Source: a virus (taxonomy: Duplodnaviria > Caudoviricetes). From it: a DNA stretch of 64,000 nucleotides. The position numbers and the translations under genes are program-made. The stretch spans positions 1 to 64,000 of the IMG/VR virus record IMGVR_UViG_3300031867_000038; one strand, given 5' to 3'. Positions 1,997 to 50,534 of the stretch are shown here, piece by piece. Positions within the stretch are counted from its first letter, which is position 1. Each line of letters starts with the position of its first letter. The notes beneath the pieces are model-generated. The model was not told where the DNA came from, ran no database searches, and saw nothing but the letters and a program-made list of their open reading frames with translations.

Positions 1997-4825
1997 ATGG
2001 CAGAAAGATTATACCCACCAGTATTGAGTTATTCATTGCCAGCTTTTGCAATTCAAACAAACACGGACACTACAACAGTTAGAATATATTTTGCCTTATC
2101 AGACTATTCTTCTAATAGTAATACGTCTGTACAAATGACAGTTCGTTATCAGGATAATAATGAAAATGCTTTAAATATTGAGACTTATAAAGGAAGAGTT
2201 AAAGCATTTGAAACATATTCTATAGACAACGAAAAAATTACACAAAGAGATAAATATTATGTTGAATTATTAAGCACAGATTTACAAAATGGTTTTACTG
2301 TAGATAGAATTTATAAAATTCAACTTAGATTTTCTTCTATATATACTGATGTGGGGCCAGATACAACCTGGTTAAATAGTAATTTATCTAGCTTTTCTGA
2401 ATGGTCAACAGTGTGTTTAATTAAGCCTATTTCTAAGCCATCTTATTCTATTATGGGATTAGATGCAGGGGGAGGTAGCTCTTCTTTATCGACTTATACG
2501 ACTGTTGATTCTATTTTTACAATTACTTATAATCAAGGTGAAAGCAATGAATTACTAAAATCATGGAGAACTGTTCTTTATAATAGTAATAAAACTACTA
2601 TTTTAGCAGATAGCGGTTGGAAAACTTATACTAATTATGATTATCTTCCAGTAGATAGTAGTAATACTGTTACATTCGATAGCATTTTACCTTATATAAT
2701 GCAAGCTGGAAATGATTATGTATTAAGGTTATCAATAGAAACTCGTAATGGATATACATCTACAACAGATTATGCCTTTACTTGTTATCCTGTTTTAAGT
2801 AATGATTTTGTGGGTAACATCACATTACAAATGAATGAAGAAGAAGGATATGCAACTTTACATGTAACTAGTGAAACTCCTTATTCAACTAATTTGGTTT
2901 TAAGGCGGAGTTCTTCTGAAAGTAATTTTACTATTTGGGAGGATGTAGCTTTAAAAGTTTTAACTAATGAAGCTGTGAATTGGACTTATAAAGATTTTAC
3001 AATTGAATCTGGAATTTGGTACAGATATGGAGTTCAAATACGTGATATAGCAGGCCGCCGCGGATCTTTAACTGTTATATCTTCTATTGAAATGGCAGAA
3101 TTTGAGCATGCTTTTCTTTTAGGTGAGAATAATCAGCAACTAAAATTAAAATATGATTTTAACATTTCTTCAGCTAATGTTACGGTATCAGAGTCTAAAG
3201 TAGATACAATAGGATCTAAATATCCTTTTATTCGTAGGAATGGGCATATGTATTATCGTACTTTTCAATGTACAGGATTAATTACTGGGTATATGGATAC
3301 AGATGAACATTTGTTTACAACAGAAGCAGAATTATATCATAATAATCAAAATCGTTATCGTGCAGTTAGAACAGCTGTTGATGCTATTTCAACATCATAT
3401 GATTATACTTATGAACGTGAATTTCGTGAAAAGGTTCAAGAATTTTTATATGATAATAAAATAAAATTATATAAATCTCTTCAAGAAGGAAATATGCTAG
3501 TAAAAATTATGAATGTTTCCTTGTCTCCTAAAAATGAATTAGGCAGATTATTATATAGTTTTTCTGCATTAGTAGTAGAAATTGATGAACCAACATTAGC
3601 TAACCTTCAAACTTATAATTTACAACCTATTGCTACTTACGAAAGTTCTATTGAATTTTCTGAAGCTTTATTAGGGCAGTTAAGTAATTATGATGGATAT
3701 GATAAAGGCAGTATTGATAATACTGGAGTAGAAGTATCAATTCCTCGATATACCACTTATAAAGCTAATGAAAATATTGTTCAAAGAATTGGTAAAAAAT
3801 ATGGATGGCAATATGGTGAAAAAATTATTAAAAATCCTATTAATAATATTTTAGTTAATGATTTTCGATTAACATATATTAGAATTGAATTAGAAAGTGA
3901 ACCGTATTTAATTTATAAATATGAAAAGAATTTAATGCCATGGAGAAATACCAAATATGCGAAAAACCCTAGTATCAAATACCCAGGTACAATAATTTTA
4001 GGATGGATAATTAATTTTTCTGGATCTAAAATTTTAGTTCAACCACCTAACAATATTTATGAATTAAATGTAGAAAATTTAATTTTACCATCTAATACAA
4101 CTATTTCTTTTCCAGTAGCAACATCTGCAACTATTTATTATACAATTGAATTAAATGAAGAATTTAACTCAGCTTCTATAGTTCCATTAGAATTATCTTA
4201 TAATAATATAATTGGACAATTGAATCGTGTATTTGAGCCTAATCTTTTATCTGAAGATATCATTCAATTATTAGCAACAAAATATCAATTTACGGATTTT
4301 GCTAATAATGTTAAATATAATTTAAATAGAGTGCTTAGACTTGATATTGAAGCAGATCCTGGAACAGTTATTTATGCAAGAAGCTCTGTAATGCCATCTA
4401 CTAATCCTACAAAATTTGTATTGAATGAAACAGGTAGATTATTATTAGAACCTAATATTAGTGAAGTTAATATTGTTACAGCTAGTTTTAGCGGTAAACA
4501 AATTGATTTAAGATATTTATATCCAATTTACTCTTGGAATTCTATTGATGACCATACTTTAAAAGCAATTCAAACTTTTAATAGAAATCATAATAAAGGT
4601 TCAACACGTCCAGCTACGCCTGTCACATACGATTTTTATACAGAAAATGGTTTATATTATATGTATTATAATAGAAGATGGAATCAAGCTCAGAGTATTA
4701 CAAAAGTAGACGCAAATGATATATTAACTACATACGTATGGGAAATTGCTTGTCCTGTGCGGGCATTAGTTAATTATGAGCTACAACAGCAGAGAGGTAA
4801 ATATGAATCGGTGCTAAATGGATGA
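1997..4825 (+). CDS. Large putative tail/baseplate protein
   Basis: ATG 1997 preceded by AAGGAGG (preferred over the 1949 start); beta-rich 942-aa ORF within the structural operon. Confidence 0.55.
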   Translation: MAERLYPPVLSYSLPAFAIQTNTDTTTVRIYFALSDYSSNSNTSVQMTVRYQDNNENALNIETYKGRVKAFETYSIDNEKITQRDKYYVELLSTDLQNGFTVDRIYKIQLRFSSIYTDVGPDTTWLNSNLSSFSEWSTVCLIKPISKPSYSIMGLDAGGGSSSLSTYTTVDSIFTITYNQGESNELLKSWRTVLYNSNKTTILADSGWKTYTNYDYLPVDSSNTVTFDSILPYIMQAGNDYVLRLSIETRNGYTSTTDYAFTCYPVLSNDFVGNITLQMNEEEGYATLHVTSETPYSTNLVLRRSSSESNFTIWEDVALKVLTNEAVNWTYKDFTIESGIWYRYGVQIRDIAGRRGSLTVISSIEMAEFEHAFLLGENNQQLKLKYDFNISSANVTVSESKVDTIGSKYPFIRRNGHMYYRTFQCTGLITGYMDTDEHLFTTEAELYHNNQNRYRAVRTAVDAISTSYDYTYEREFREKVQEFLYDNKIKLYKSLQEGNMLVKIMNVSLSPKNELGRLLYSFSALVVEIDEPTLANLQTYNLQPIATYESSIEFSEALLGQLSNYDGYDKGSIDNTGVEVSIPRYTTYKANENIVQRIGKKYGWQYGEKIIKNPINNILVNDFRLTYIRIELESEPYLIYKYEKNLMPWRNTKYAKNPSIKYPGTIILGWIINFSGSKILVQPPNNIYELNVENLILPSNTTISFPVATSATIYYTIELNEEFNSASIVPLELSYNNIIGQLNRVFEPNLLSEDIIQLLATKYQFTDFANNVKYNLNRVLRLDIEADPGTVIYARSSVMPSTNPTKFVLNETGRLLLEPNISEVNIVTASFSGKQIDLRYLYPIYSWNSIDDHTLKAIQTFNRNHNKGSTRPATPVTYDFYTENGLYYMYYNRRWNQAQSITKVDANDILTTYVWEIACPVRALVNYELQQQRGKYESVLNG

Positions 4826-6805: not shown

Positions 6806-7663
6806 ATGGCTAAAAAAATAGGTCAAATATTATATAATGGAAAAACTACATATTTAGACAAAAGGGACTTGAAGTTTGGCACGACTCAAACAACAGTAGG
6901 TAATACTAATTTTGATGATTTAGTTATTAACTTAATTAACGGAAAATTTGTTCAAGGGACTACTTATTATTTAAGATTAAACATAAAACGTATTAATATT
7001 AATGATAATTATGGAGTTGTTAAGACAGGATCTGATAATGATCCCCATTATCAAAATATTGAATGTAAATTATACAGTGATGATAATTTATCTTATCAAA
7101 CTTTAGGAGAGTTATTAGTTATTGAACCATATCAAAGCATTGACGCCTCTTCAGTTGATAATGAAGGTGAATTTTTAGACTGGTGCGAGGAACGTGATCC
7201 AGAAACTTCTATGTCTACCGGAGCTAAAGCTTATTATGATGCTTTAGTTACTCGACACAATCAAGACAGAACAACACAGTCAAGTGCAATTCGTACAAAT
7301 AAACAAGTTGTAGAATTAATTTTTACTCCATATCTTACTTCTTCACAAATCGTATTTGAGTTAAGACGTGTTGCATATGATTATAGTAATTCTACATCAA
7401 AGCGAATTGTTGCGGTAGATACCGGTAACGATGGCTATGATTATGATGCAGCTATTATTAAGAATATTTTACCTCATACATGTGATAAAATTGGTATTCA
7501 AACTACTCCAGGATCTTTAGTTATTATTAATGGAGAAGGTATGCGAGTAGGTAAAAGTGGTATTATGGAAATTAATAGCGGTATTGCAATTAATTCTGTT
7601 GGGTTTGCAGCGCCCAATAGAGAGATCAATAATTTTATTTTAGATTATATTTATACAGAATAA
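6806..7663 (+). CDS. Putative virion structural protein
   Basis: 285 aa, RBS AAGGA, structural operon context. Confidence 0.5.
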   Translation: MAKKIGQILYNGKTTYLDKRDLKFGTTQTTVGNTNFDDLVINLINGKFVQGTTYYLRLNIKRININDNYGVVKTGSDNDPHYQNIECKLYSDDNLSYQTLGELLVIEPYQSIDASSVDNEGEFLDWCEERDPETSMSTGAKAYYDALVTRHNQDRTTQSSAIRTNKQVVELIFTPYLTSSQIVFELRRVAYDYSNSTSKRIVAVDTGNDGYDYDAAIIKNILPHTCDKIGIQTTPGSLVIINGEGMRVGKSGIMEINSGIAINSVGFAAPNREINNFILDYIYTE

Positions 7664-7679
7664 GGGAGGTCTTTAAGTT

Positions 7680-10181
7680 ATGTATGAATCATTTTATGGT
7701 GGCAAACAAGGCCGCTCTTATGCAATAGTTGCTAGATATAATAGTATCTATGATATGTTCCTAGCTTTTTCAGGCGGAGATAATTATACCGATGTTAGTT
7801 ATGATGAATATGTCATTATTGATACTATTTTACAAAATAACCAAAAAAATAATCCAGAAAATGGTATTATTTATCGCAGAGGTTATAATTATAATGATGC
7901 TTTTTACTTTAGCGATGAAAATAAAGAAGTTTCTTATACTACTTTAGAAAAAAATAGATTAATTAATGTTACATTACGCGGGGCAGAACTAGGTGTTTCG
8001 TATGATTGGATCTGGGATAATGATAGAAACAGTCTAGACAATGGATCTACATATGCAACTACTAACACAATTGCTGTCCCTAAATTTTATGATTTTAAAT
8101 ATACTCTTAGTGATGATGGTGAAGGAAATATTGTTGCTACAATCATTAAAGGGAATTTAAATGAAAAGTGGAGCGCAGCCTGGGAAGAGTATGTTACTAA
8201 TCCTGGTGGTGGAGCTATTTATATAGGCCAGATTGTGGGACCTGAAGGGGGCGTCCCTGAGATCCACATGATATCCTGGGATGAATATCAACAAGCAGCT
8301 GCCGCCGCAGAAACAGAAGAAGTAAAAAATACGTTTGCAATTCAACCAGTACCAGGATATGATTCTACTCATACTGGGACTATTGATCCTAATACAGGAT
8401 TAGATGAAGATGGATATGATGTTAATCATTTTCATGATAAAATTCAATATGCATATTGTGTAATTCGTGATAGTCGTGGAAATATCACAGGCACATATCT
8501 TTCTTTTGATTTTCCTTATACAGTTTTTGCTTTTGATGCTAGCTCTATTTCTCCATATGATTCACGAGGAAGCTTAGATCCAGAGACTCATCAATGGAGT
8601 TATATAAATTTAATTGAAGAAAATGATGGTCCTGATGGTTCTAAAGATCATCCATTTTATAAATCTTATCATATTGATGTTCCTTCTGGTATTCATGGAG
8701 CAGATGTTAATGATTTTATTATTCAATCTTATGATCAAGATGTTTATGATGAAAATGGTAATTATCTTGATGCAGCTATTTCTGATAAAACAGATGATCG
8801 TGAGAATCCTTTTTTAAATGATAATTATTCTAACCAATATTTAACATATACTATTAGAGATTATAATGCAACTGAAAAAGGAGAGCCTCAAGAGCGGCAA
8901 GTAATTGCTCCTTATAAAGTAATTGCTAATTTAGATACTAGTAAAAAAATAGATCCAGAAGTTAATAATCCTAATTATCAGCATAATTTTCCAAAAGAAA
9001 TTACTTTGAATTTTACTCATGGAAAACCAATCACTGTAAAATATCCAGTTATTGAGCGGATATGGCAACAAACTGAAAATGCAGATGATACAGATATAGC
9101 TTATGGTGGCGGTAAATTACAAAAACATCATTTATATGTATTGTTTTCTACTGAGTCACGGCCTCGTGATTTAGGATTAGTTAAGTATGTACAGAGGCTT
9201 TGGGTACAAGAAAATAATGATTCTACTCAAAAAGATTCTGATGGGAACGATTTAACTGAAAATTGTGTTTATATTCAATTAACTGGCGAAGATCATCCTA
9301 TATGTTTAGGCTTAATTAAAAAGGTAGAGAATATTTGGACTCAGTTAGCAGATGATAATACTCAGACTGATGCTAATGAGAATCCCTTATTAGCAGATTA
9401 TACATATGTACAGTTGACTAATGAGGAACGTCCAAGGAATCTTGGTTATATTACTAAGATTACTGAAGTTAGTAGAAATAGTGAAGACAAACAATTCTAT
9501 ACTCATTTTAATTATCTTGAGCAAAATGGCGAGATTATTCGTGGGGCTGCAACAGTTTTACCCGTCGCAGAAATTGCTGATATAAAATTAAATGGGGACC
9601 TTGTTCTGGTTGGTTATCGGAATTTAAGCCCGGAAGATTTAACTGATTTTCCTGAGCAATTAATTACTCAAGAAAATGGATTAACTTATATAAATCTTGG
9701 TGCGGTTGTTAAAGGTAATCATATTTTAACCAATTTTACTACATATGCTGAACTATATGAACAATATCCTCGTGGGTTAGAAAGAGATACAGATGGCAAT
9801 CCAGTAGGAGGGCGTGAAAATCGTGCAGGATGGTTAGTAACAGTTGGTCATGATGTTGATATTGTTATTGATACCACTACTAATAAAAAAGTAGCGGCAG
9901 AAGATGCAATTATTCAGAATGGTGAGATTATTTTACCTGTGGGATCACAATATGCAGATACTTCTAATTTAGCTATTGAAACTGCTACTGGTTATAAAAT
10001 ATATGGATTTGACTATGTAGCAAATACTTGGTATGCAGTACAAGATTTGGCGGCGACTGCAGTAAAACCTGAATATAGTGTTTTATTAGCACGTCCTTTA
10101 GCAAATAATATTAATAAACCTGATTCATTAGATGTAGATCAGTTAAATGAAAAAGGACTTTGGTTTGTAATTACGGCATGA
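7680..10181 (+). CDS. Putative virion structural protein with three internal ~45-aa repeats
   Basis: 833 aa acidic; N-terminal MYESFYGG..GRS; repeats at about 9048-9455. Confidence 0.55.
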   Translation: MYESFYGGKQGRSYAIVARYNSIYDMFLAFSGGDNYTDVSYDEYVIIDTILQNNQKNNPENGIIYRRGYNYNDAFYFSDENKEVSYTTLEKNRLINVTLRGAELGVSYDWIWDNDRNSLDNGSTYATTNTIAVPKFYDFKYTLSDDGEGNIVATIIKGNLNEKWSAAWEEYVTNPGGGAIYIGQIVGPEGGVPEIHMISWDEYQQAAAAAETEEVKNTFAIQPVPGYDSTHTGTIDPNTGLDEDGYDVNHFHDKIQYAYCVIRDSRGNITGTYLSFDFPYTVFAFDASSISPYDSRGSLDPETHQWSYINLIEENDGPDGSKDHPFYKSYHIDVPSGIHGADVNDFIIQSYDQDVYDENGNYLDAAISDKTDDRENPFLNDNYSNQYLTYTIRDYNATEKGEPQERQVIAPYKVIANLDTSKKIDPEVNNPNYQHNFPKEITLNFTHGKPITVKYPVIERIWQQTENADDTDIAYGGGKLQKHHLYVLFSTESRPRDLGLVKYVQRLWVQENNDSTQKDSDGNDLTENCVYIQLTGEDHPICLGLIKKVENIWTQLADDNTQTDANENPLLADYTYVQLTNEERPRNLGYITKITEVSRNSEDKQFYTHFNYLEQNGEIIRGAATVLPVAEIADIKLNGDLVLVGYRNLSPEDLTDFPEQLITQENGLTYINLGAVVKGNHILTNFTTYAELYEQYPRGLERDTDGNPVGGRENRAGWLVTVGHDVDIVIDTTTNKKVAAEDAIIQNGEIILPVGSQYADTSNLAIETATGYKIYGFDYVANTWYAVQDLAATAVKPEYSVLLARPLANNINKPDSLDVDQLNEKGLWFVITA

Positions 10182-26842: not shown

Positions 26843-29687
26843 TCAAAAAAAGTATTTCTTACTATCTACGACTTCATAATCTTCAATGAATAATTGTGGC
26901 GTAATATTTCCCATCCATTCATTTTGATTACATTTAGCAACAATATTTAATTCAATGTAACCTGTATTATTATATTGTAATTTAGCACAATCTAATTCAG
27001 TGGCCCTAAATAACATCAATGCAATTCCATCAGGCAAAGTAATTTTAATAGTATAACCTTTTTTATCATAAATAGTCACCATTTCAGGAGTGACTTTAAG
27101 ATTTTGAATTGCAATTAAAGCTTCAGGCAAATCTTTTCCCCATAAAGAGTCTAGGTTTGCGATGTCCAAAATAGCCTGCGGCCGCACATCTTTTTCTTCC
27201 CAAATATAATCAACATGATAAATAGCTTCATTAGGCATATCTTTTAAAAGTTCATCTGTCTTTTGAATAAACTCTGGGATTTTATCTTCATCAATACCTA
27301 AACCAAATGCTCCCTGGTGCGAGAGCCCCTATCCTTTTCAGGTAGGCCTGACTATTTCTTACTCTAGATTAATTATTAAATTAACCTAGAGAACCCCATT
27401 TCCAACTATGTATCAATAATAGCTGTACTTCCAATCTCACTTGGAATAGTCGATACAGGTTATTTAACGTTTTCTCAATGGATAATCTAAATTTTTTCGT
27501 TTATTATTTTGACCAAGATTAATAGCAGTTACTGTACTTCTAGCACATTCATATTTTTTAGCAATAGCATATTGAGATAAATTTGAATTAAGTAAATCAT
27601 CAATAATCATATCAGCTCTATCTCTTTGAAAAGCTCTGCTTGTTTCTTTTCTTAATGGATAAGTATATTTATCTCTGTGCCAAAGTTTACCACTTTGAAT
27701 ACGTTTTATACTCGAATAATCATATCCAGTTCTTTCTGCTATTTCTTTCAAAGGCATATCTGTATTTAAAATTAAATCAAATACTTCATTTATTACATCT
27801 TGAGAATGAGTTACAAATGGACTATTTTCTCCAATATGTAAAGGAGGATTTTCTCCTCCAGGAGTCATATTATATCCATTTTCAAAACTATCATAATAAC
27901 GAATCCAGTATTTTTCTCTTTCATTATAATTTTCTATATCAGATTCAATTACTTCAAAAGTAAAGTTTTCAATTCCATATTTATCAAAAGCATAATACAG
28001 TATTTTATTCTCATCTGTACCATATCCTTTAGCTTTATGTTCTTGAAAACGCCTTTTTGGATCAATCGTTTGTCCTATATAACATTTACCATTAATAGTA
28101 TTAGTAATTTTATAAATACTTTTTTTCATATTTGTTCTCCTTATTAAAAAATAGGAGAAAACGTTAAATCTTCCCACGAGATTTCCATATACATTTTCTC
28201 TCAAATATACTTAGGATTCCTCGTTAGCAAATTATTTATTCATGTCCAAAAATGGCCATGAAATTTTTAATTTACCCCGCTGATAAACGGAAAAAGGTTT
28301 ACTGGCCACCAATTCGACCAGTTGCATACCGAATACATTGGGTAGCTTCACAGATATCTTTAAATTCTGTAATGCCAACCGTATCACAGCCCCGCGCACT
28401 TCCTTGATATGAAATAAATTTAACCGAATAAGGTGGATCAAAAGGTGGATCTAATTTAATACAATCTCCATAAGTAGTAGGGTCAGATTCATAAACTTCT
28501 TCTACTTTTGTTAAAATACAACATGGACGTTGATATTTAGCCATAATTTTATTTGCACAAAGGCCAGCAATATTTTTATCAATTTGGCCTGGTTCCAAAA
28601 GAAAAAGAATCACTTTATGATCTAAAAGATTCTCATTTTCAATCTTTCGCTCTAATAAATCCATGCTATTATCTTGAGCTTTTGTTTGACGAGCTTTAAC
28701 ATTAGTTGCAACTCTAATAGCTTGTTCTACTATTGATTCCATTGCGCCGGCCGCATGTCCACGCTTAGTTGAAGGCACTTTTTCAAAAGCAAACTGTAAC
28801 AGCATAGATTTAAAAATTAATTCTTTTTCATCATTAGTACCACTACGTACAATAGCATTTACAAAAGGAGCTACATAAAAAGCTACACCAATTGGAGTCA
28901 CTTTATCTCCTATTGAGTATCTATTTTTTTCAATCATATATGTAATAAATGGATTACGTAAATTATCTTCTTTTAAGCCAATTTGAATAAGATGCTTTGT
29001 TTCAAAAGATAGCATACTCATCATATCCGCGCAATTCCCAAGTGCTACAAGATCTAAATATTTATTTGCAGTAGTTGTTCCCAATAAGTCATCTAAGTAT
29101 CTACAAAATTGCCAAGTTACTCCAACTCCAGATAATTCTTTATTTGGATAATCAGAAATTTGATTATTAATAACAAAAGCATAGGGGTTATTAATATCGC
29201 AAATATGATGATCTAAGATAATAACTAAACACTCTTCATTCCATAAAGCTTGACATTCTTGAATATCATTAGAACCTGCATCAGGAATAATAATTAATTT
29301 ATGCTCTCCATTTAATGAGCGTAAAATACTTTGAATATGATCGTTTAAACCATGCTGTTTTCCATCATGAATACGATATGATAGATGTGCGGCGGTCCAG
29401 TCTGGGAACATCTCATAGAGATAGTTATATATTAATGCGGCAGACGTAAAGCCATCACAATCTGAATCTACAATTAAGATTGCATCAATACCTAGATTGA
29501 TTGTAGTGATAAGGGTGGCCGCCGCATCATGTAATACTTTTTTACCAAAACCTTCATAAGAATTAATATCTGCGTTAGTTGTATTTAAATAATGTTCAAT
29601 ATCTTCTTGTTTAATTCCACGATTCGTTAAGATTTGTTCTATTGCATTATAATTTGGATTAATAGGTTTAATTAAACTATACTTCAT
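26843..29687 (-). CDS. recJ: RecJ ssDNA exonuclease, split by a group I intron (exons 29687-28317 and 27319-26843; about 615 aa spliced)
   Basis: DSDCDG, DAG, LDHH, GVGV, CADMM, GSARG motifs; splicing restores YATG|HQGAFG in frame. Confidence 0.88.
27320..28316 (-). mobile_element. Group I intron in recJ (997 nt)
   Basis: 5' exon ends ACUGGU pairing with GCCAGU (U.G splice pair); P7 GACUA/UAGUC; terminal G; frame restored. Confidence 0.88.
27464..28129 (-). CDS. Intron-encoded GIY-YIG homing endonuclease
   Basis: SIYKITN..CYIGQT..RFQEH..NFTFEV..EREKYWI..NGYN; RBS AAGGAG before ATG 28129. Confidence 0.88.
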   Translation of the reverse strand: MKKSIYKITNTINGKCYIGQTIDPKRRFQEHKAKGYGTDENKILYYAFDKYGIENFTFEVIESDIENYNEREKYWIRYYDSFENGYNMTPGGENPPLHIGENSPFVTHSQDVINEVFDLILNTDMPLKEIAERTGYDYSSIKRIQSGKLWHRDKYTYPLRKETSRAFQRDRADMIIDDLLNSNLSQYAIAKKYECARSTVTAINLGQNNKRKNLDYPLRKR

Positions 29688-43291: not shown

Positions 43292-45634
43292 TTAAAGTTT
43301 AGTAGCTTCAGTAATTTTACTATTTTTAATCATAATATTGCCTAAAGTGATACGTCCACCAATAGGAATATCAGACGCTGAAATACAAATTGAACTAGGA
43401 ATTCCTGTTAACAAAATAGTATCTGTGGGATTTACTAGGATAGCTGATGCTAATTCTCCAGTTGCAGCGCATGGTTTATATGTATAGATGCCGTGGCCGC
43501 CCCTTGCTTGGACGGGGAACTCCTTGATATCAGTCATTTTACCTAGACCCTTTTCTGAAAAAACTGCTAGATATTGTTTCTTGCCTATAGGAAGCCCCGC
43601 AATTACATAGTCATTATCTACTAGTTTAATAGCTCTAACTCCTGAAGCAACTCTTCCTACAGGAGTAATTTCTGTAGACATAAAATGAATTGCTAAACCT
43701 TGTTTAGTAACTACAACTAAATCTTCATCTTTTACAAAAGTAACACTAACAATTTCATCATTAGCATCTTTGAATTTAATTGCTTGAATACCAGTGGTTT
43801 TCTTAGTATCCATATATTCTTTAATTTTAGTCTTTTTAACTAAGCCATTCTTCGTAAAGAAAATAACATATTCTGCATTAGTATCTCTATATAATGAAGA
43901 TACAGCACAAACTTTTTCATCAGGCTCAAACTTACAAAGAGAAGAAATAGGAACTCCGCCAGAAGTATTATTACCTTCAGGAATTTTTTCTACTAACATT
44001 CTATATAATTTACCTTTATTAGTAAATATCATAAGAGTATCAATAGTATTTGTACTAATTAAAGAAAGAATAGCATTATCCGTAGTTTTTACACCTTTCC
44101 CAGCTCTATTTTGTGACTTAAAGCTGGCCCGCGCTATTCTCTTAACATTCCCTGCTTTTGTCATAACCACCACAACATCTTCAGGAACTACTTCAGCAAT
44201 TTCTTTTTCTTTTGTTGAAATATTAATTTGAGCTAATTCTGTTCTTCTATTGTCTCCATACTTTTTAACAATAGAACTAAGACGGTCTTTAAGAATTTCT
44301 TCTTGCTTTTCACGAGAAGCCAAAATCCATTGAAGATTTTTAATGGTATTTAAAAGATCAGTAGCCTCTTTTTCAAGTTCAACTTTTTCTAACTTGGCAA
44401 GAGAAGAAAGTCGCATAGCTAGAATAGCTTTTGCTTGATTATCTGTAAATTGATATTTTTCAATCAATTTAATCTTTGCGGCCGCCGCACTTTCAGATCC
44501 TTTAATTAGAGCGATGATATTATCAATATCTTCTAATGCTCTAAGTAAACCATTTACAATCTCTAATCTATCTACAGCTTTATCTAAATCAAATTGAGTT
44601 TCTTTTAAAATACATTCAATATTATGAGCTACATAAATTTGAATACATTGTTTTAGATTAAGTTCAGTTGGAACCTTATCTACAAGAGCTACTTGATTAT
44701 AACTAAAAGAGGTCTGAAGATCAGTCTTTGCAAAGAGTTGATTTACTATTACTTCAGGATTAATTCCTGAATCACATCTAATAACAATATTCAGCTTACC
44801 TTTGCTGCTACTATTGATGACTTCATCAATGCCTTCTATTTCTTTTGCATCACAAGCATCGCCAATTTGTTTAATCAATACTTCTGTAGAAGTCCCATAG
44901 GGAATTTCATAAAAGATAATATCTTGCTTTTTAATTTCATATTTACCACGAATTTTAACAGACCCGTGCCCGCTCTTCATAATAATAGGAATATCATCTT
45001 TATTAATAACAATTCCACCTGTGGGGAAATCTGGACCAGGAAGAGTTGGTTCTTTCCCATCAAGGTAATCAAAAATAGCTTGAGCAACTTCTTTAAGGTT
45101 ATGCGGCGCCCAGTTACATGACATTGCTACTCCAATGCCGCTATTAGGGTTACATAAAAGATTGGGGAAAGCCGCAGGAAGAGTTGTAGGTTCTTCTAGA
45201 GTTTCATCATAGTTTGGGATAAATGGTACATTATTTTTCTTTAGTCCAATTAACATACCATCTTCAGCTAACTTTGACAGGCGGGCTTCAGTGTAACGAT
45301 ATGCGGCAGGTCCATCTCCGCCAATATTACCTAGATTACCATGAAAATCCATCAATGGATATCGCATAACCCAAGGCTGAGCTAATCTTACAAGAGCTCC
45401 ATAGATACTGGAATCTCCATGAGGATGGAATTGACCCATTACATCACCAACAATCTTTGCGCATTTGACATGAGCTTTATTGTTAGTATATCCGCTATGA
45501 AGTGCGCCATATAAGATTCTTCGTGCAACAGGCTTAAGACCACTCTTTGCATCAGGGATAGATCTATCTGTATTAACGGCTACTGCATATTCAATAAAGT
45601 TCTGAGATAATTCATTTATCAGATCATTAGTCAT
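43292..45634 (-). CDS. gyrA: DNA gyrase subunit A
   Basis: GLKPVARR, HPHGDSSIY, AYRYTEARL catalytic Tyr, GyrA-box-like QNRAGKG, beta-pinwheel repeats. Confidence 0.93.
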   Translation of the reverse strand: MTNDLINELSQNFIEYAVAVNTDRSIPDAKSGLKPVARRILYGALHSGYTNNKAHVKCAKIVGDVMGQFHPHGDSSIYGALVRLAQPWVMRYPLMDFHGNLGNIGGDGPAAYRYTEARLSKLAEDGMLIGLKKNNVPFIPNYDETLEEPTTLPAAFPNLLCNPNSGIGVAMSCNWAPHNLKEVAQAIFDYLDGKEPTLPGPDFPTGGIVINKDDIPIIMKSGHGSVKIRGKYEIKKQDIIFYEIPYGTSTEVLIKQIGDACDAKEIEGIDEVINSSSKGKLNIVIRCDSGINPEVIVNQLFAKTDLQTSFSYNQVALVDKVPTELNLKQCIQIYVAHNIECILKETQFDLDKAVDRLEIVNGLLRALEDIDNIIALIKGSESAAAAKIKLIEKYQFTDNQAKAILAMRLSSLAKLEKVELEKEATDLLNTIKNLQWILASREKQEEILKDRLSSIVKKYGDNRRTELAQINISTKEKEIAEVVPEDVVVVMTKAGNVKRIARASFKSQNRAGKGVKTTDNAILSLISTNTIDTLMIFTNKGKLYRMLVEKIPEGNNTSGGVPISSLCKFEPDEKVCAVSSLYRDTNAEYVIFFTKNGLVKKTKIKEYMDTKKTTGIQAIKFKDANDEIVSVTFVKDEDLVVVTKQGLAIHFMSTEITPVGRVASGVRAIKLVDNDYVIAGLPIGKKQYLAVFSEKGLGKMTDIKEFPVQARGGHGIYTYKPCAATGELASAILVNPTDTILLTGIPSSICISASDIPIGGRITLGNIMIKNSKITEATKL

Positions 45635-46196
45635 TATAAGTAGCCTCCTCGTCTACAAATTCCCATTTTAAAGGCTCTCCAGTAATAGGATGCCTACCAT
45701 TAGTTTTTAATCGGGTTGAATGATTTGCAACTTGTCTAATATGATTTCTGTCTCCTCCTACACACCATTCAACAGCTCTATTTGCATTAGCAAAGATTTC
45801 TCCTGTATTAACACATCTAATTCTTTTACCTTTATTATAATTATGATGTTTTTCACCAGATTGAGCTTCTGATAATTTTTTTCGAGTTTCTAAACTTAAA
45901 GCTCCTTTAGAGCCAGCATCTCGTATATTATAACCATAATTTTCATCTTTGGTTTTATATAAATTAATATAATATTGTTCTCTAATTACAGCTTGTTCTT
46001 CAGTTAATTTATCTTCTAAAATTGAAGCAGTAAAATTTTCCCACCCATATTTTTCAATAGCATTATAAAAATGTCTAGAATTTTTATATCTTTTTCCATT
46101 AATACCAGCTCTACAACTTAAAGATACACAAGTTTGTCCTATATATTTTTTATGATTAATATTATTTTCATACATATAAACTTTATATTCTTTCAT
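45627..46196 (-). CDS. Free-standing GIY-YIG endonuclease between gyrB and gyrA
   Basis: VYMYEN..KYIGQT..EQYYI..YGYN plus NUMOD3-like ETRKKLSEAQ and NUMOD1-like IRCVNTGEIF; RBS overlaps gyrB stop; 3' end overlaps gyrA start. Confidence 0.85.
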   Translation of the reverse strand: MKEYKVYMYENNINHKKYIGQTCVSLSCRAGINGKRYKNSRHFYNAIEKYGWENFTASILEDKLTEEQAVIREQYYINLYKTKDENYGYNIRDAGSKGALSLETRKKLSEAQSGEKHHNYNKGKRIRCVNTGEIFANANRAVEWCVGGDRNHIRQVANHSTRLKTNGRHPITGEPLKWEFVDEEATYND

Positions 46197-46205
46197 AATA
46201 TTACC

Positions 46206-49200
46206 TCATATTGTATATACTGCATCTTTTGCGTGTGTTTTAATAAAATTCTTACGAGGGATTACTGCTTCTCCCATAAGATCATCAAAAAGTCTATTTG
46301 CTTTTTCAACATCTTCAACTGTGATTTGTTGAATGATTCTTTGTTCTGGATCAACAAGAATCTCAGTTTCTTCTGCTGACAATTCACCAAGACCTTTGAG
46401 TCGATTTACTGTATATTTTTTATTACGATTTTTAGCCCTATATGCTTCAAGAGCTTCATCATTTTTAAGATAAAGATAATTGTCTTTACCTTCAGTAATT
46501 TTATAAAGTGGGGGGATGCCGCCATATACATAGCCATCAAGAATTAATTCAGGACAGAATGTCCATATAAAAGTATAGAATAGATTCTTAATATGACTAC
46601 CATCTACATCCAGTTATTCGTAGCTTTCACTACGCCCTGACTATATCTTACCTGCAAATAGCAGGGACACCATTTCGAGTTGCGTATCAATAGCAACCCT
46701 ACTCCCACGATTCTGGGATAGTCGATACAGGTTCAAACATTAATCCATTTCTTTTCTTTTTTCTTATAAATAGGTAAATCAGAATAATTGCGACCCCAAA
46801 GAATTTGTTGGAATGAAGTAAAATTTACTCTATCTTTATAGTCTTCATATATTTCTTTAGCTGTTTTATTAACATACTCAGTTCTAATTTTAATAATTTC
46901 TTCATTTGTGAACTGAGCAAATTTACCATTTTCGCCTTTACTATTTTGTTTTATATAGTATTCTTTATTTTCTTTAGTAAAGACTTCAGGCATCACATGA
47001 CCCCATGCTCTACCTTGCCAAAGATTTTGGAAATATTGAAAACTTATTTTATCAGCAAATTCTTGGTAAACATCTTTTTGCTTTAAATGATTATTATATG
47101 CAATTCGGATCTTTTTTACATCATCTTCAGTTAATTTTGCATTTGGATTATTATTGCCAACGACATTACGTAATCCACCATCAAATTTATTACCTGAAGC
47201 TTTTGCATTTAATTTTGTAATCCAGTAAGCTTCTCGTTCATCCAATTGATCTAATGAACACTCTTCCAATACTTCATAATTAAAAGCATTTTTACCTTTT
47301 TCTTTAATATATCCATCAAAAGGAATACGAGTTTGTTCATATGTTTTTATTTTATGTTCATTGAAGCGTCTTTCAATATCATTACTTTTACCAATATAAA
47401 ACATTGCTGGATTATTTTTTTCTGTTATTTTATAAATACCTATCATAATGATTTCTCCTTTAATATTTAATTAAAAGAGAAATGGATAATGTTTGTTTCC
47501 CACGGGATTACCATGCTTATTTATTAAGTTTAGGTTTCCCCGTTAGCACTTATCATTTCTCTTTATTGGATATGAGATTGATGTGTGACACATGAATCTC
47601 TTTTGCCCAATAAATTAAAATTTTAAGTACCCCGCGGATCAGCGGAAAAGTGTTACACAGCCAATGTTACTTAGCATCACTCTCGATTATAATCTTTCCA
47701 TATCTTAGATCTTTTGGATCATAGGTCAGCCGCATAGTTTTCATATCAACTTTAAGACCAAAAGCTTCAATCATAGTCATAATTTCAGCGTTCTTTTGAA
47801 TCTTATCTAGACTTGCTTTACGAACGTTTAAAATTTTACCACGCACAGGAAGTACCGCCTGAGTTTCTGCATTTCTAGCCTCTTTAAGATTACCCGAGGC
47901 GCTATCCGTATTATCCTATATTTCTATAGGTACTGACTAACTCTTCGCTCCGACTTGTCAAGTCATCAACGCGTCCTCTATTTCCAACTATGTATCAATA
48001 ATAGTTGTACTTCCGATCTCACTCGGAATAGTCGATACAGCTTATTGTATATCTTTATAAGTTTGGCGAGTAATTATATTATATACTGTAGTCCATGCTT
48101 TATTAGGAGCATATTTTAACCAAACTTGTTTAGGACTTAAGCCTTCATCATAATCTTTTCTCATTTGACGAACTTCATCGTCTGTAAAACTTCTTTTATT
48201 ATTTGCAGCTATTTCAGATGGATTAGCTTTAGCTTGATGAGAGTGCCAATATTTATTTTCTTCATTATGATATTCTGGATAAATATCTTTCCAAGTTTCA
48301 AACCACCAGACTTTTTGAAGTCCTCTTTTAGAAATTTTATCCTTATATTCTTCATATACCTGTTTAAAAGGAATATGAGCATTATAGCACTCTCTAATAT
48401 ATTTTACATCTTCTTCATTCAGTAAAGCTCTACCATTTTTTGATCCCTTTTGAGATCTATTTGGATTACTGTCTCCACCTTCAGTAGCATTGTAACCATT
48501 ATGAAATGAATCATAATATTTAATAAAAAATTTTTCTAATTGGTCTAAAGCTTCTTTTGAGTATTCTTCTGGTGTTAATGTTGCAATAATTTCAAAATCA
48601 AAATTTTCCCATCCATATTTTCTAACAGCTTGATGAAATTGATGGTTATAATCATTGGCTTTTTCATTATAAGCAGAAGATTTATGTCCATATTGTCTAC
48701 GTTCTATATCAATACTTTGACCAATATAGCATTTATTATTAATTTTATTTTGATATTTATAAATTCCGATCATATCGGTCACTCCTTTCATTGGAATATG
48801 AAGGAGCATGAGAAAAGATTATTAAATTTTGTCCAATTATACAATCTTGCCACGGGATTGCCTTCGCCTAACTAAGTTTTGACATACTTAGATAACGGTC
48901 AGGTTTCCCCGTTAGCCACTTTATAAGTGACCCCAGTGATGAACTGGAAAAAAGGATTAGGGCAATAGTTATTTACCCTCAGTGACATAGATCTCACATT
49001 TCTTACGATCTCGTCCCCAACAATCAGCGAGTTTGCTGTCAAATTTAACTGCTTTTTCTTTTTTCTTCTTTTGCTCACGAGCAGCATCTCTAGCCTTTTT
49101 TGCAGCTTCTCTTGCTTTACGTGCGGCCGCCGCCTTATCAAAAATAGTTTTAATTTCTTTTTCATTACTAGCAAGCCAATACTGAAGATTATCAGCAATA

Positions 49201-50252
49201 GCTCCAGTAAAAGGAGTCATATCTAATTTAACAACAGTAGTTTTTACTTGAGCATTATAAGCAACATTAGGAGCTGTTAAATTAAAAATAACATAAATAC
49301 CCTCTTGTATATCTTCTCCAGTAAGATTTTCATCTTTTTCTTTTAACCATTTTTTTTCTCTGAAAAATTTATTAAATTCTTTAGTTAATAGACTTTTAAC
49401 TTGAGTAATATGAGGACCTGATTCTGTTAATCCAGTATTAACATAAGGGATAAAAGTAGATGAATACATAGAAGTATATGTAAGTACCATATCCATCTTA
49501 TTTTTACCTTGCGCGAATTGCATATTAAATCTATTTTTAATAAGTTCTTTATCTTTTACAGCTTTATCAACAAGATCATTTATTCCTTTTGAAGAAACAT
49601 ATACAGTTTTTTCATCGAGATAGGTAAGATTAATCGTAAGTCCAGGACAAAGAGCTGTAATAGTTTCACAAAGATTTTTAATCTTATTGATTTCTACTTC
49701 TGGATGTGTAAAAAATTCTTCACTAGGTAGCCATTCTACTAAAGTACCAGAAGGAATTTTTTTATCTACTTTTGCACTAGTTCGTTTTTCAAAAATTCCT
49801 TCTTTAAAGAAAATATGTTCTTGTTCTCCATCTCGACAAGTACACACTTGAAGCCAATGGCTTAGAAATGTAGTAATTTTAGAACCAATACCAAAAGAAC
49901 CTAATGAAGTGCCTTCATAAGTACCATCTTCACGATATTTACCAGAAGTATTTAATACACTAAAAGCTGCTTCAAGAATAGTTTTCCCGTCATCTCTATA
50001 GCTATTAGGAATAAATCCTTGGCCATAATCTCGGACTCTTATGACATTATTTTTATCAATACTTATATCAATTTGATTTCCATGTCCTAATCTAAATTCA
50101 TCAATAGCATTAGATAGAATCTCAATCAAAAGTTGAGTAGAATAGGTGGTGTCACCCGCGTATACACCTGGTTTTAGACGAGTGAAAGTTAATGGGTCTA
50201 GACTTTCAATACTATTTTTAGTATATAAATTTTTTTTCTTTCTTTCTGCCAT
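46206..50252 (-). CDS. gyrB: DNA gyrase subunit B split by two group I introns (exons 50252-48975, 47906-47673, 46610-46206; 638 aa spliced)
   Basis: ATPase N-terminus (EILSNAIDE, DYGQG, GSFGIG); splicing restores TEG|DSA, PVRGKILN, SDA|DVDGSHI and RLKGLGE in frame. Confidence 0.92.
46611..47672 (-). mobile_element. Group I intron 2 of gyrB (1062 nt)
   Basis: Exon end GCU pairs with GGC; GCUAACGGGGAAACC and AAUCCCGUG core elements; P7 GACUA / AAGAUAUAGUC; terminal G. Confidence 0.9.
46733..47446 (-). CDS. Intron-encoded GIY-YIG homing endonuclease
   Basis: GIYKIT..YIGKS..RRFNEH..EREAYWI; repeated C-terminal modules NAKLTEDDVKKIR / AQFTNEEIIKIR. Confidence 0.88.
   Translation of the reverse strand: MIGIYKITEKNNPAMFYIGKSNDIERRFNEHKIKTYEQTRIPFDGYIKEKGKNAFNYEVLEECSLDQLDEREAYWITKLNAKASGNKFDGGLRNVVGNNNPNAKLTEDDVKKIRIAYNNHLKQKDVYQEFADKISFQYFQNLWQGRAWGHVMPEVFTKENKEYYIKQNSKGENGKFAQFTNEEIIKIRTEYVNKTAKEIYEDYKDRVNFTSFQQILWGRNYSDLPIYKKKEKKWINV
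47907..48974 (-). mobile_element. Group I intron 1 of gyrB (1068 nt)
   Basis: Exon end GGGU pairs with GCCC; GCUAACGGGGAAACC, AAUCCCGUG, P7 GACUA/UAGUC; terminal G. Confidence 0.9.
48042..48773 (-). CDS. Intron-encoded GIY-YIG homing endonuclease
   Basis: GIYKYQN..YIGQS..RRQYGH..LEKFFI..NGYN; modules ALLNEEDVKYIR / SFTDDEVRQMR; RBS AAGGAG before ATG 48773. Confidence 0.88.
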   Translation of the reverse strand: MIGIYKYQNKINNKCYIGQSIDIERRQYGHKSSAYNEKANDYNHQFHQAVRKYGWENFDFEIIATLTPEEYSKEALDQLEKFFIKYYDSFHNGYNATEGGDSNPNRSQKGSKNGRALLNEEDVKYIRECYNAHIPFKQVYEEYKDKISKRGLQKVWWFETWKDIYPEYHNEENKYWHSHQAKANPSEIAANNKRSFTDDEVRQMRKDYDEGLSPKQVWLKYAPNKAWTTVYNIITRQTYKDIQ

Positions 50253-50424
50253 AAATTACCTCATCCACATTTTTCCAATAAATTTCCATTTGTTCTTTTG
50301 TAGGGTAAATCCATCCATCATGAATACCTATAGTAATATATCTTTCATCATTAAGATACTCTTGAGGAATAGGATAAAACCCCCCAAATTCTATTTTCAA
50401 TTTTTCCCTTCCTTTTTCATTCAT
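50218..50424 (-). CDS. Hypothetical protein coupled to gyrB
   Basis: Short ORF overlapping gyrB start; start at ATG 50424 or TTG 50400. Confidence 0.45.
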   Translation of the reverse strand: MNEKGREKLKIEFGGFYPIPQEYLNDERYITIGIHDGWIYPTKEQMEIYWKNVDEVIYGRKKEKKFIY

Positions 50425-50431
50425 TTTATAT

Positions 50432-50460
50432 ATTATAACATAGAATTTTTTGTTTGTCAA
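50432..50460 (-). promoter_or_regulatory. sigmaA-type promoter for gyrase operon
   Basis: TTGACA-N17-TATAAT with TG extension. Confidence 0.8.
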
Positions 50461-50499
50461 GTTTTTGCTTAAAAATTTTAGGAGATTTTTAAGCAAAAA

Positions 50500-50534
50500 A
50501 AATAAAAGTGGGTTATCTATTAAGATAACCCACT
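50500..50534 (-). terminator. Terminator after endolysin
   Basis: AGTGGGTTATCT/AGATAACCCACT stem followed by a U-tract on the - strand. Confidence 0.75.

Follow-up and report, generated by a model that had tools for sequence, protein, structure and literature searches.

Two putative group I introns with GIY-YIG endonuclease genes in the gyrB gene of an uncultured phage

Introns of the IA type, with or without homing endonucleases, are known in several copies from Bastillevirinae, Twort-like and Jug phages, where they interrupt essential genes for replication and packaging; they are often missed by gene callers, and several may occupy one gene (PMC11878797, PMC12880540). The intron hosts named in these surveys are the DNA polymerase, terminase, td, ribonucleotide reductase and nrdD genes, and no type IIA topoisomerase subunit is among them (PMC11878797, PMC12880540). 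Both gyrase subunits, GyrB and GyrA, are hosts of inteins, selfish elements with homing nucleases at the most conserved gyrase motifs (PMC4760082). Searches of PMC and bioRxiv for group I introns in phage gyrB or other topoisomerase genes retrieved no such report. Here, we describe a gyrB gene with two insertions on the minus strand (positions 46206-50252) of a 64,000-nucleotide (nt) stretch of phage DNA, referred to as the window, which forms the first part of the IMG/VR record IMGVR_UViG_3300031867_000038 of an uncultured phage (73,953 bp, completeness estimate ~49%). Whereas inteins are removed at the protein level, the stop codons and the ribozyme core of the insertions described here point to removal at the RNA level.

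Judged from its sequence, this gyrB very probably harbours two mobile group I introns of the phage IA2 type, each with a GIY-YIG open reading frame (ORF), designated ORF 1 in intron 1 and ORF 2 in intron 2. We compared them with the T4 td intron, fetched from NC_000866 as L060 (L-numbers denote related or fetched loci). The P4 core blocks AACGGGGAA...AAUCCCGUG and the P7/P7.1/P7.2/P7' blocks CGACUAUCCC..GGGAGUAGGGU..CUCGAAA..AGAUAUAGUC are common to both, and the order of P7.1, P7.2, GAAA and P3' is alike. As in td with its I-TevI gene, the GIY-YIG ORF is looped out of P6a, a stop codon lies just inside the intron, and a conserved enzyme motif is hit. The host gene is different, thymidylate synthase there and gyrB here. 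The 5' parts differ too: td and nrdB have the canonical P1-P2-P3 succession, whereas the gyrB introns are devoid of P2 and have two hairpins before J3/4.

Exons, joined protein and intronless alleles

The interrupted gene consists of the following parts, all on the minus strand.
48975-50252, minus strand: gyrB exon 1, 426 codons; GHKL ATPase and transducer, ending in the Toprim domain at ...VTEG (Pfam DNA_gyraseB, 2.7e-28, and HATPase_c)
47907-48974, minus strand: intron 1, a group IA2-like ribozyme of 1068 nt, ending in G
48974 to ~48774, minus strand: 5' part of intron 1, with P1 and the internal guide sequence, P3 5' strand, two hairpins, P4-P5 and P6
48042-48773, minus strand: GIY-YIG homing-endonuclease ORF of intron 1 in the P6a loop, 243 amino acids (aa) from MIGIYKY
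48041-47907, minus strand: 3' part of intron 1, with P6a', P7, P7.1, P7.2, P3', P8, P7', P9 and the terminal G
47673-47906, minus strand: gyrB exon 2, 78 codons of the Toprim domain, from DSASG to ...ESDA (Pfam Toprim)
46611-47672, minus strand: intron 2, a ribozyme of the family of intron 1, 1062 nt, ending in G
46733-47446, minus strand: GIY-YIG homing-endonuclease ORF of intron 2 in the P6a loop, 237 aa
46206-46610, minus strand: gyrB exon 3, 134 codons and the stop; DVDGSHI... through the GyrB C-terminal domain (Pfam DNA_gyraseB_C, 2.7e-15)

Exon 1 ends with the codons GAG GGT (48975), exon 2 extends from GAT AGC to GAT GCT, and exon 3 opens with GAT GTA GAT GGT (46610); the predicted ligated junctions read ...ACTGAGGGT + GATAGCGCC... 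and ...AGTGATGCT + GATGTAGAT.... An in-frame stop codon follows two codons into each intron (GGT AAA TAA in intron 1 and GCT AAG TAA in intron 2), and the 5' end of exon 2 lacks a start codon. In a program-made ORF list, exon 1 appears as an ORF of 427 codons (50252-48969), that is, the exon plus one codon. The observation in an earlier note on this DNA that the middle and last exons are absent from the ORF track was borne out, as the list holds only fragments of 59 and 58 aa over exons 2 and 3, starting 19 and 76 codons into them.

Joined together, the exons encode 426 + 78 + 134 = 638 aa of a GyrB/ParE-type protein. When each exon was searched separately against PDB sequences, exon 1 covered residues 32-457 (ending LVEG), exon 2 residues 458-530 and exon 3 residues 531-661 of S. 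pneumoniae ParE (4juo_C), and the corresponding parts of E. coli GyrB (6rks_B) were 3-425, 426-499 and from 500 on. The exons thus adjoin on both solved chains with zero residues gained or lost, and EG/DSA and DA/DVDG (the slash marks the insertion site), the acidic motifs of Toprim, are restored. The earlier note had claimed precisely this joining of three exons into a 638-aa GyrB and had proposed an alignment to GyrB as a check; we confirmed its coordinates, and the alignment was colinear. The GHKL ATPase, the transducer, Toprim with EGDSA and DxDxD, and the C-terminal domain were all present and colinear with the solved structures. The gene is accordingly assigned to the B subunits of gyrase-like type IIA topoisomerases (GyrB/ParE); the top PDB match is ParE, and the partner GyrA has five C-terminal blade repeats by Pfam.

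Megablast of the region gave no match among cultured phages, and tblastn of exon 1 against them gave only matches of at most 31% identity. The search of IMG/VR with exon 1 yielded 50 related loci (54-77% identity), and tblastn with the joined protein revealed an uninterrupted gyrB in ~30 of these metagenomic phage loci, among them L003, whose gyrB is 84% identical over residues 1-636 of the joined protein. Intron-less alleles, which the earlier note had suggested looking for in related phages, are thus available. In them, neither the EGDSA nor the DADVDG codons are interrupted, and the distance between the two motifs is exactly 234 nt, as long as the middle exon of the window; the allele of L023 and L032 reads GAGGGTGA at the site labelled B. 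Because the intact alleles of relatives have contiguous codons at this exact spacing, the insertions appear as discrete, precisely bounded and optional elements, and the intronless alleles are the strongest evidence for that.

The ribozyme core and its endonuclease genes

Insertions in gyrB were present in 16 relatives, and their boundaries were placed so that the joined exons gave the highest protein alignment score. Except in L040, exactly one of the top-scoring solutions placed a U ahead of the 5' junction and a G ahead of the 3' junction. L040 has a divergent insertion near EG/DS (7266-8345), for which the boundary search gave no U...G solution; the part of its gyrB downstream of the insertion is only 34% identical to that of the window, and this 3' end of the gene may stem from recombination or have been replaced. 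Four core blocks are common to all insertions, UAACG(G/A)GGAA, AAUC(C/U)CGUGG, GUAUCGACUAU and AGAUAGUCAG, and in all of them the terminal G lies 36-37 nt past the start of the last block. As alignment of whole ORF-less introns with MAFFT misaligned their 5' halves, contiguous half-intron alignments were used instead.

In both introns of the window, P1 contains a U·G pair at the splice site: AGGGU/AA pairs with UUGCCCU in intron 1, and GCU/AA with UUGGC in intron 2. P10 could be formed by CUAUU and GAUAG in intron 1, and by ACAUU and GAUGU in intron 2. The long-range P3 joins the segment after the guide sequence with that after GAAAU, as UCCUUU/AGAGGA in intron 1 and ACACU/GGUGU in intron 2, with ACCACU/GGUGGU and CUCACU/GGUGAG as further variants in relatives, and its complementarity is kept in at least 10 sequence pairs. 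The mean duplex energy of P3 was -4.24 kcal/mol with its own partner vs -1.64 kcal/mol with the partners from other sites. Similarly, the guide sequence paired in P1 with its own exon at -5.25 kcal/mol vs -2.70 kcal/mol with the exons of other sites, and in L038, where the exon has the synonymous codon GGA in place of GGG, the guide sequence has U in place of C to match. The family-wide own-versus-cross signal of P10 was weak (-2.43 vs -1.60). The Rfam alignment suggested a different P3, GUGCU/AGUAC, within the P7.1-P7.2 joiner; we discarded it, as it showed no covariation and the same joiner is unpaired in td.

Single-sequence folds of the 5' parts gave, almost everywhere, P1, an unpaired segment, a short hairpin, a long stem and UAA-P4, and in intron 2 the second hairpin upstream of P4 has a long extension. 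The 3' parts folded into P7.1, P7.2 (loop UAUUGAUAC), an unpaired segment with GAAAU and P3', P8, and a P9 hairpin with a tetraloop that is mostly GAAA or of a similar GNRA type. For the contiguous 3' halves RNAalifold predicted 23 pairs, 15 of them with compensatory changes, and P7.1, P7.2 and P9 covaried. For the 5' halves it predicted 20 pairs, with compensatory changes in 11/20, and recovered P1, hairpins A and B, P4 and P5, as did the single-sequence folds. P4 has a G-C to A-U change in 5/17 sequences, and P5 covaries too. P7, GACUA/UAGUC, is invariant in 15/15 sequences and hence uninformative for covariation, whereas P8, present in every single-sequence fold, is too variable to align. 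The P7.1 and P7.2 elements between P7 and P3', a signature of the IA class, align to those of td. The features that the earlier note had listed, namely a U pairing with G in P1, a terminal G and this P7, were all found in both introns. Taken together, the core blocks, the covariation and the relatives' covariance model described below agree with its proposal, and both insertions are identified by their sequence as group I introns, IA2-like, of the T4 td type.

Each of the two introns contains an AAAGGAG ribosome-binding site upstream of its ORF, and both ORFs begin with MIGIYK. Pfam GIY-YIG (PF01541) matched ORF 1 with 28.3 bits and ORF 2 with 41.1 bits (cut-off 22.6), in agreement with the GIY-YIG assignment in the earlier note. 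Both match PHROG homing-endonuclease families, ORF 1 matching PHROG 7168 'homing endonuclease' at 3.9e-32. With the catalytic domain of I-TevI, ORF 2 shares 32% identity and a visible GIY...YIG...R...E...N pattern; no alignment to the C-terminal half of I-TevI was obtained, and the nuclease differs from I-TevI in that its C-terminal part does not match the I-TevI DNA-binding domain. No Pfam domain matched past residue ~107 of ORF 1 or ~81 of ORF 2, and an I-TevI-type linker and DNA-binding domain (zinc finger, NUMOD3, helix-turn-helix) was found in neither of them; their C-terminal halves match no known DNA-binding domain. The two ORFs are 32% identical to each other over the full length, with a common C-terminal half that contains two similar segments. 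By comparison with ORF-less L038, the last codons of each ORF and its stop form the 3' strand of P6a, as far as P6/P6a can be read from the sequence by eye only.

At the site of intron 1, L015 has an intron whose ORF shares 73% identity with ORF 1. ORF 2 is 68% identical to the ORF of L004, whose intron is inserted 5 nt downstream. L046 has an intron at the very site of intron 2, and its ORF shares only 46% identity with ORF 2. The ribozymes of intron 2 and of the L004 intron (3218-4307) are 83-84% identical, with sites 5 nt apart and different guide sequences, which suggests either re-targeting of the intron or exchange of endonucleases between neighbouring introns. At the sites of the window's introns, the ORFs of relatives are full-length, truncated (53-78 aa) or absent, a series that would be expected for a homing cycle.

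Splicing and its rivals

From the exon colinearity, the intronless alleles, the covarying core and the intact nuclease ORFs, all of them observed, we infer splicing, nuclease activity and homing along the following lines. The whole 4-kb stretch would be transcribed as one pre-mRNA, in which each intron would fold into a ribozyme and excise itself via two guanosine-initiated transesterifications. The internal guide sequence would pair first with the end of the upstream exon, forming P1 with its U·G pair at the cut, and afterwards with the start of the downstream exon, forming P10. The 638-aa subunit, its EGDSA and DxDxD metal-binding motifs intact, would be made only from mRNA spliced at both introns; on unspliced RNA, translation would end two codons into either intron. 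The GIY-YIG gene in the P6a loop would be translated from its own ribosome-binding site, and, in mixed infection, the nuclease would cut the intronless gyrB of related phages, whose repair would copy the intron in.

Several results speak against this interpretation. A scan with group I intron models, which the earlier note had proposed, gave a divided answer. The Rfam model RF00028 found no group I match in the window at the gathering score, nor at E<=10 on 45400-50500. Its only response to the introns was a weak truncated match to the 3' half of intron 2 (E=0.84), with nothing for intron 1. Even the ORF-less, 301-nt intron of L038 at the EG/DS site, matched by RF00028 end to end (37.8 bits, E=1.3e-7), stays below the gathering score of 50. 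Furthermore, P1 of intron 2 includes just three exon base pairs, and no canonical P2 lies between P1 and P3, the P3 5' strand following directly after the guide sequence. Finally, searches for the exact spliced junctions (23-26 nt, both junctions) in viral (IMG/VR) and metagenome (JGI) contigs found none, and therefore no near-identical intronless allele or spliced transcript is on record.

The silence of RF00028 on the window is explained by the ~730-nt ORF that splits each ribozyme, which the model cannot span. The gathering score of 50 bits is an operational threshold and not a biological criterion, and the model lacks P7.1 and P7.2. At this score it also reported nothing on 12 related loci, and the isolated intron halves, searched as separate loci, reached only E=0.46-0.84. 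The two halves of intron 1 share 82% and 86.5% identity with the ORF-less intron of L038. The other part of the answer came from a covariance model, R1, built from the 3' halves of 13 relatives with no window sequence, which found exactly three strong sites in the window: the 3' half of intron 1 (47904-48038, 126.8 bits, E=4.6e-24), the 3' half of intron 2 (46608-46728, 113.5 bits, E=2.5e-21) and one more (27317-27456, 91.2 bits, E=8.9e-17). Because a model made from relatives only matches both 3' halves at such E-values, the resemblance of both introns to the relatives' ribozymes must be regarded as far above chance. Instead of P2, the family has two covarying hairpins further on, after the P3 5' strand and before the UAA of J3/4. 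P2 is found in the td, nrdB and Twort introns and is optional in group I introns generally.

As a rival reading, endonuclease cassettes could have killed gyrB, leaving a pseudogene in a phage that uses the host gyrase or nothing. Splicing being deduced, the introns not being called by Rfam, and the nuclease ORFs being decayed in some relatives would all fit. Against it, the three exons have unbroken reading frames with all catalytic motifs, many relatives keep the flanking RNA core with compensatory changes and with guides that track the exons, and gyrA is intact, which makes a dead gene very improbable. Alternatively, gyrB could be a genuinely split gene whose three polypeptides (426, 78 and 134 aa) assemble, like T4 gp39/gp60 or Aeh1 NrdA, and endonuclease-split phage topoisomerase and ribonucleotide reductase genes are indeed known (PMC2988022, PMC3045599). 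However, exons 2 and 3 have neither a start codon nor a ribosome-binding site at their 5' ends, the breaks lie inside the EGDSA and DxDxD loops of one fold, and the insertions contain a full ribozyme core, so that we give this arrangement even less credence. Inteins or translational bypassing in place of removal at the RNA level, for which GyrB and GyrA as known intein hosts (PMC4760082) and the 50-nt bypass in T4 gene 60 (bioRxiv 10.1101/2022.08.31.505936) could be quoted, can be practically dismissed, given the in-frame stop two codons into each insertion, nuclease ORFs that are not fused in frame, insertions of ~1.06 kb, far above any known bypass, and no intein domains found by Pfam.

Spread of the intron family in phage topoisomerase genes

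Self-splicing introns in gyrB being the favoured reading, we turn to their neighbourhood and their distribution. The genes next to gyrB and the insertion sites of the intron family in the clade are as follows.
45627-46196, minus strand: free-standing GIY-YIG/NUMOD3 homing-endonuclease gene between gyrB and gyrA (Pfam NUMOD3 and GIY-YIG, PHROG 314)
43292-45634, minus strand: gyrA, the uninterrupted partner subunit, 780 aa (Pfam DNA_topoisoIV, 3.4e-131, and five DNA_gyraseA_C repeats)
gyrB insertion sites in the clade: GIG/S at residue 123; EG/DS at residue 426; DA/DV at residue 504
further gyrB insertion sites in the clade: within the Val codon 5 nt past DA/DV; after DVDG; within KG/LGE at residue 577

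The free-standing endonuclease gene, the only one of the three nuclease genes at this locus with NUMOD3, starts 10 nt past the gyrB stop and overlaps the gyrA start, and the gap between gyrB and gyrA is 575 nt in the window vs 2-75 nt in most relatives. It represents a third, polymorphic invasion of the gyrB-gyrA locus.

The earlier note had called gyrase B an uncommon intron host. This holds for the searched literature, in which the surveys name other genes, but not within this uncultured phage clade, where gyrB introns are common and not rare; L038 has three ORF-less introns in one gyrB. As a separate observation, gyrA is interrupted at residue 169 in L011 (6337-7574) and L038 (3709-4783), and at about residue 102-115, beside the AAYRYTE catalytic tyrosine, in L044 (8453-9705); the core-motif scan located members of the intron family within the gyrA gaps of L011 and L038.

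The third site matched by R1 belongs to another intron of the same family in the window (27329-28316, minus strand, 988 nt), with a GIY-YIG ORF at ~27464-28129. It splits a DHH/RecJ-like gene, whose exon 1 ends at 28317 and whose exon 2 joins the ORF ending at 26843; the cut falls after ...YATG, and the gene resumes with GLSHQGAFG. Its P1 is CUGGU/GCCAG, its P3 is AACCUU/GGGGUU, and its P4 is a compensated variant, CGAGG/CUCGUG.

Among cultured phages, blastn of the ORF-less intron gave only a 45-nt match, in Enterococcus phages EF1 and EF5. In EF1 (MF001358; L061:1569-2545), the DNA polymerase gene contains an intron of the gyrB intron family that the record does not annotate; what the record lists there is a 'DNA polymerase III alpha subunit' fragment and hypothetical proteins. 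As read from the sequence, the EF1 intron has a guide sequence, the P3 5' strand, a hairpin and a long stem, and then GCUAACGGGGAA, and its P7.2 loop CUAUUGAUACG and 3' end ...AUAGUCAGUGCCUAUAGUAAUAUAGGAUAUACACG match those of the gyrB introns. It differs in that the host gene is another one, the phage is cultured, and just 45 nt are alignable by blastn. Since the EF1 intron has the same layout, the succession of P3, two hairpins and J3/4 is not confined to the clade.

Tentatively, and with somewhat less than even confidence, we propose that the topoisomerase genes of this ~140-kb clade are an undescribed hotspot of one intron family. In gyrB, at least six positions in four conserved motifs are occupied, three of the positions lying within 12 nt of DADVDG, and endonuclease-bearing, decayed and ORF-less forms coexist; gyrA would be occupied at two positions. 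The 68%-identical endonucleases 5 nt apart, with re-adapted guides, would then reflect intron transposition or reassortment of endonuclease and ribozyme, and the P2-less, two-hairpin layout might fall outside the current definition of IA2.

The gyrB introns are selfish elements of an ordinary type, while no published report of this host gene was found; the mechanism is not new, and no new one is revealed. A practical consequence concerns annotation. Gene callers give a truncated GyrB of 427 aa and miss 212 codons, and Rfam with default settings is silent, because of which metagenomic phage gyrase genes will be systematically mis-annotated as fragments or pseudogenes. With the introns described here, type IIA topoisomerase subunits join the essential phage genes colonised by pairs of intron and homing endonuclease, and once again such elements target the most invariant catalytic codons. 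The clade offers a natural series of intronless, ORF-less, decayed-nuclease and intact-nuclease alleles at neighbouring sites, which could serve to study the homing cycle, the re-adaptation of guide sequences and the competition of co-infecting phages.

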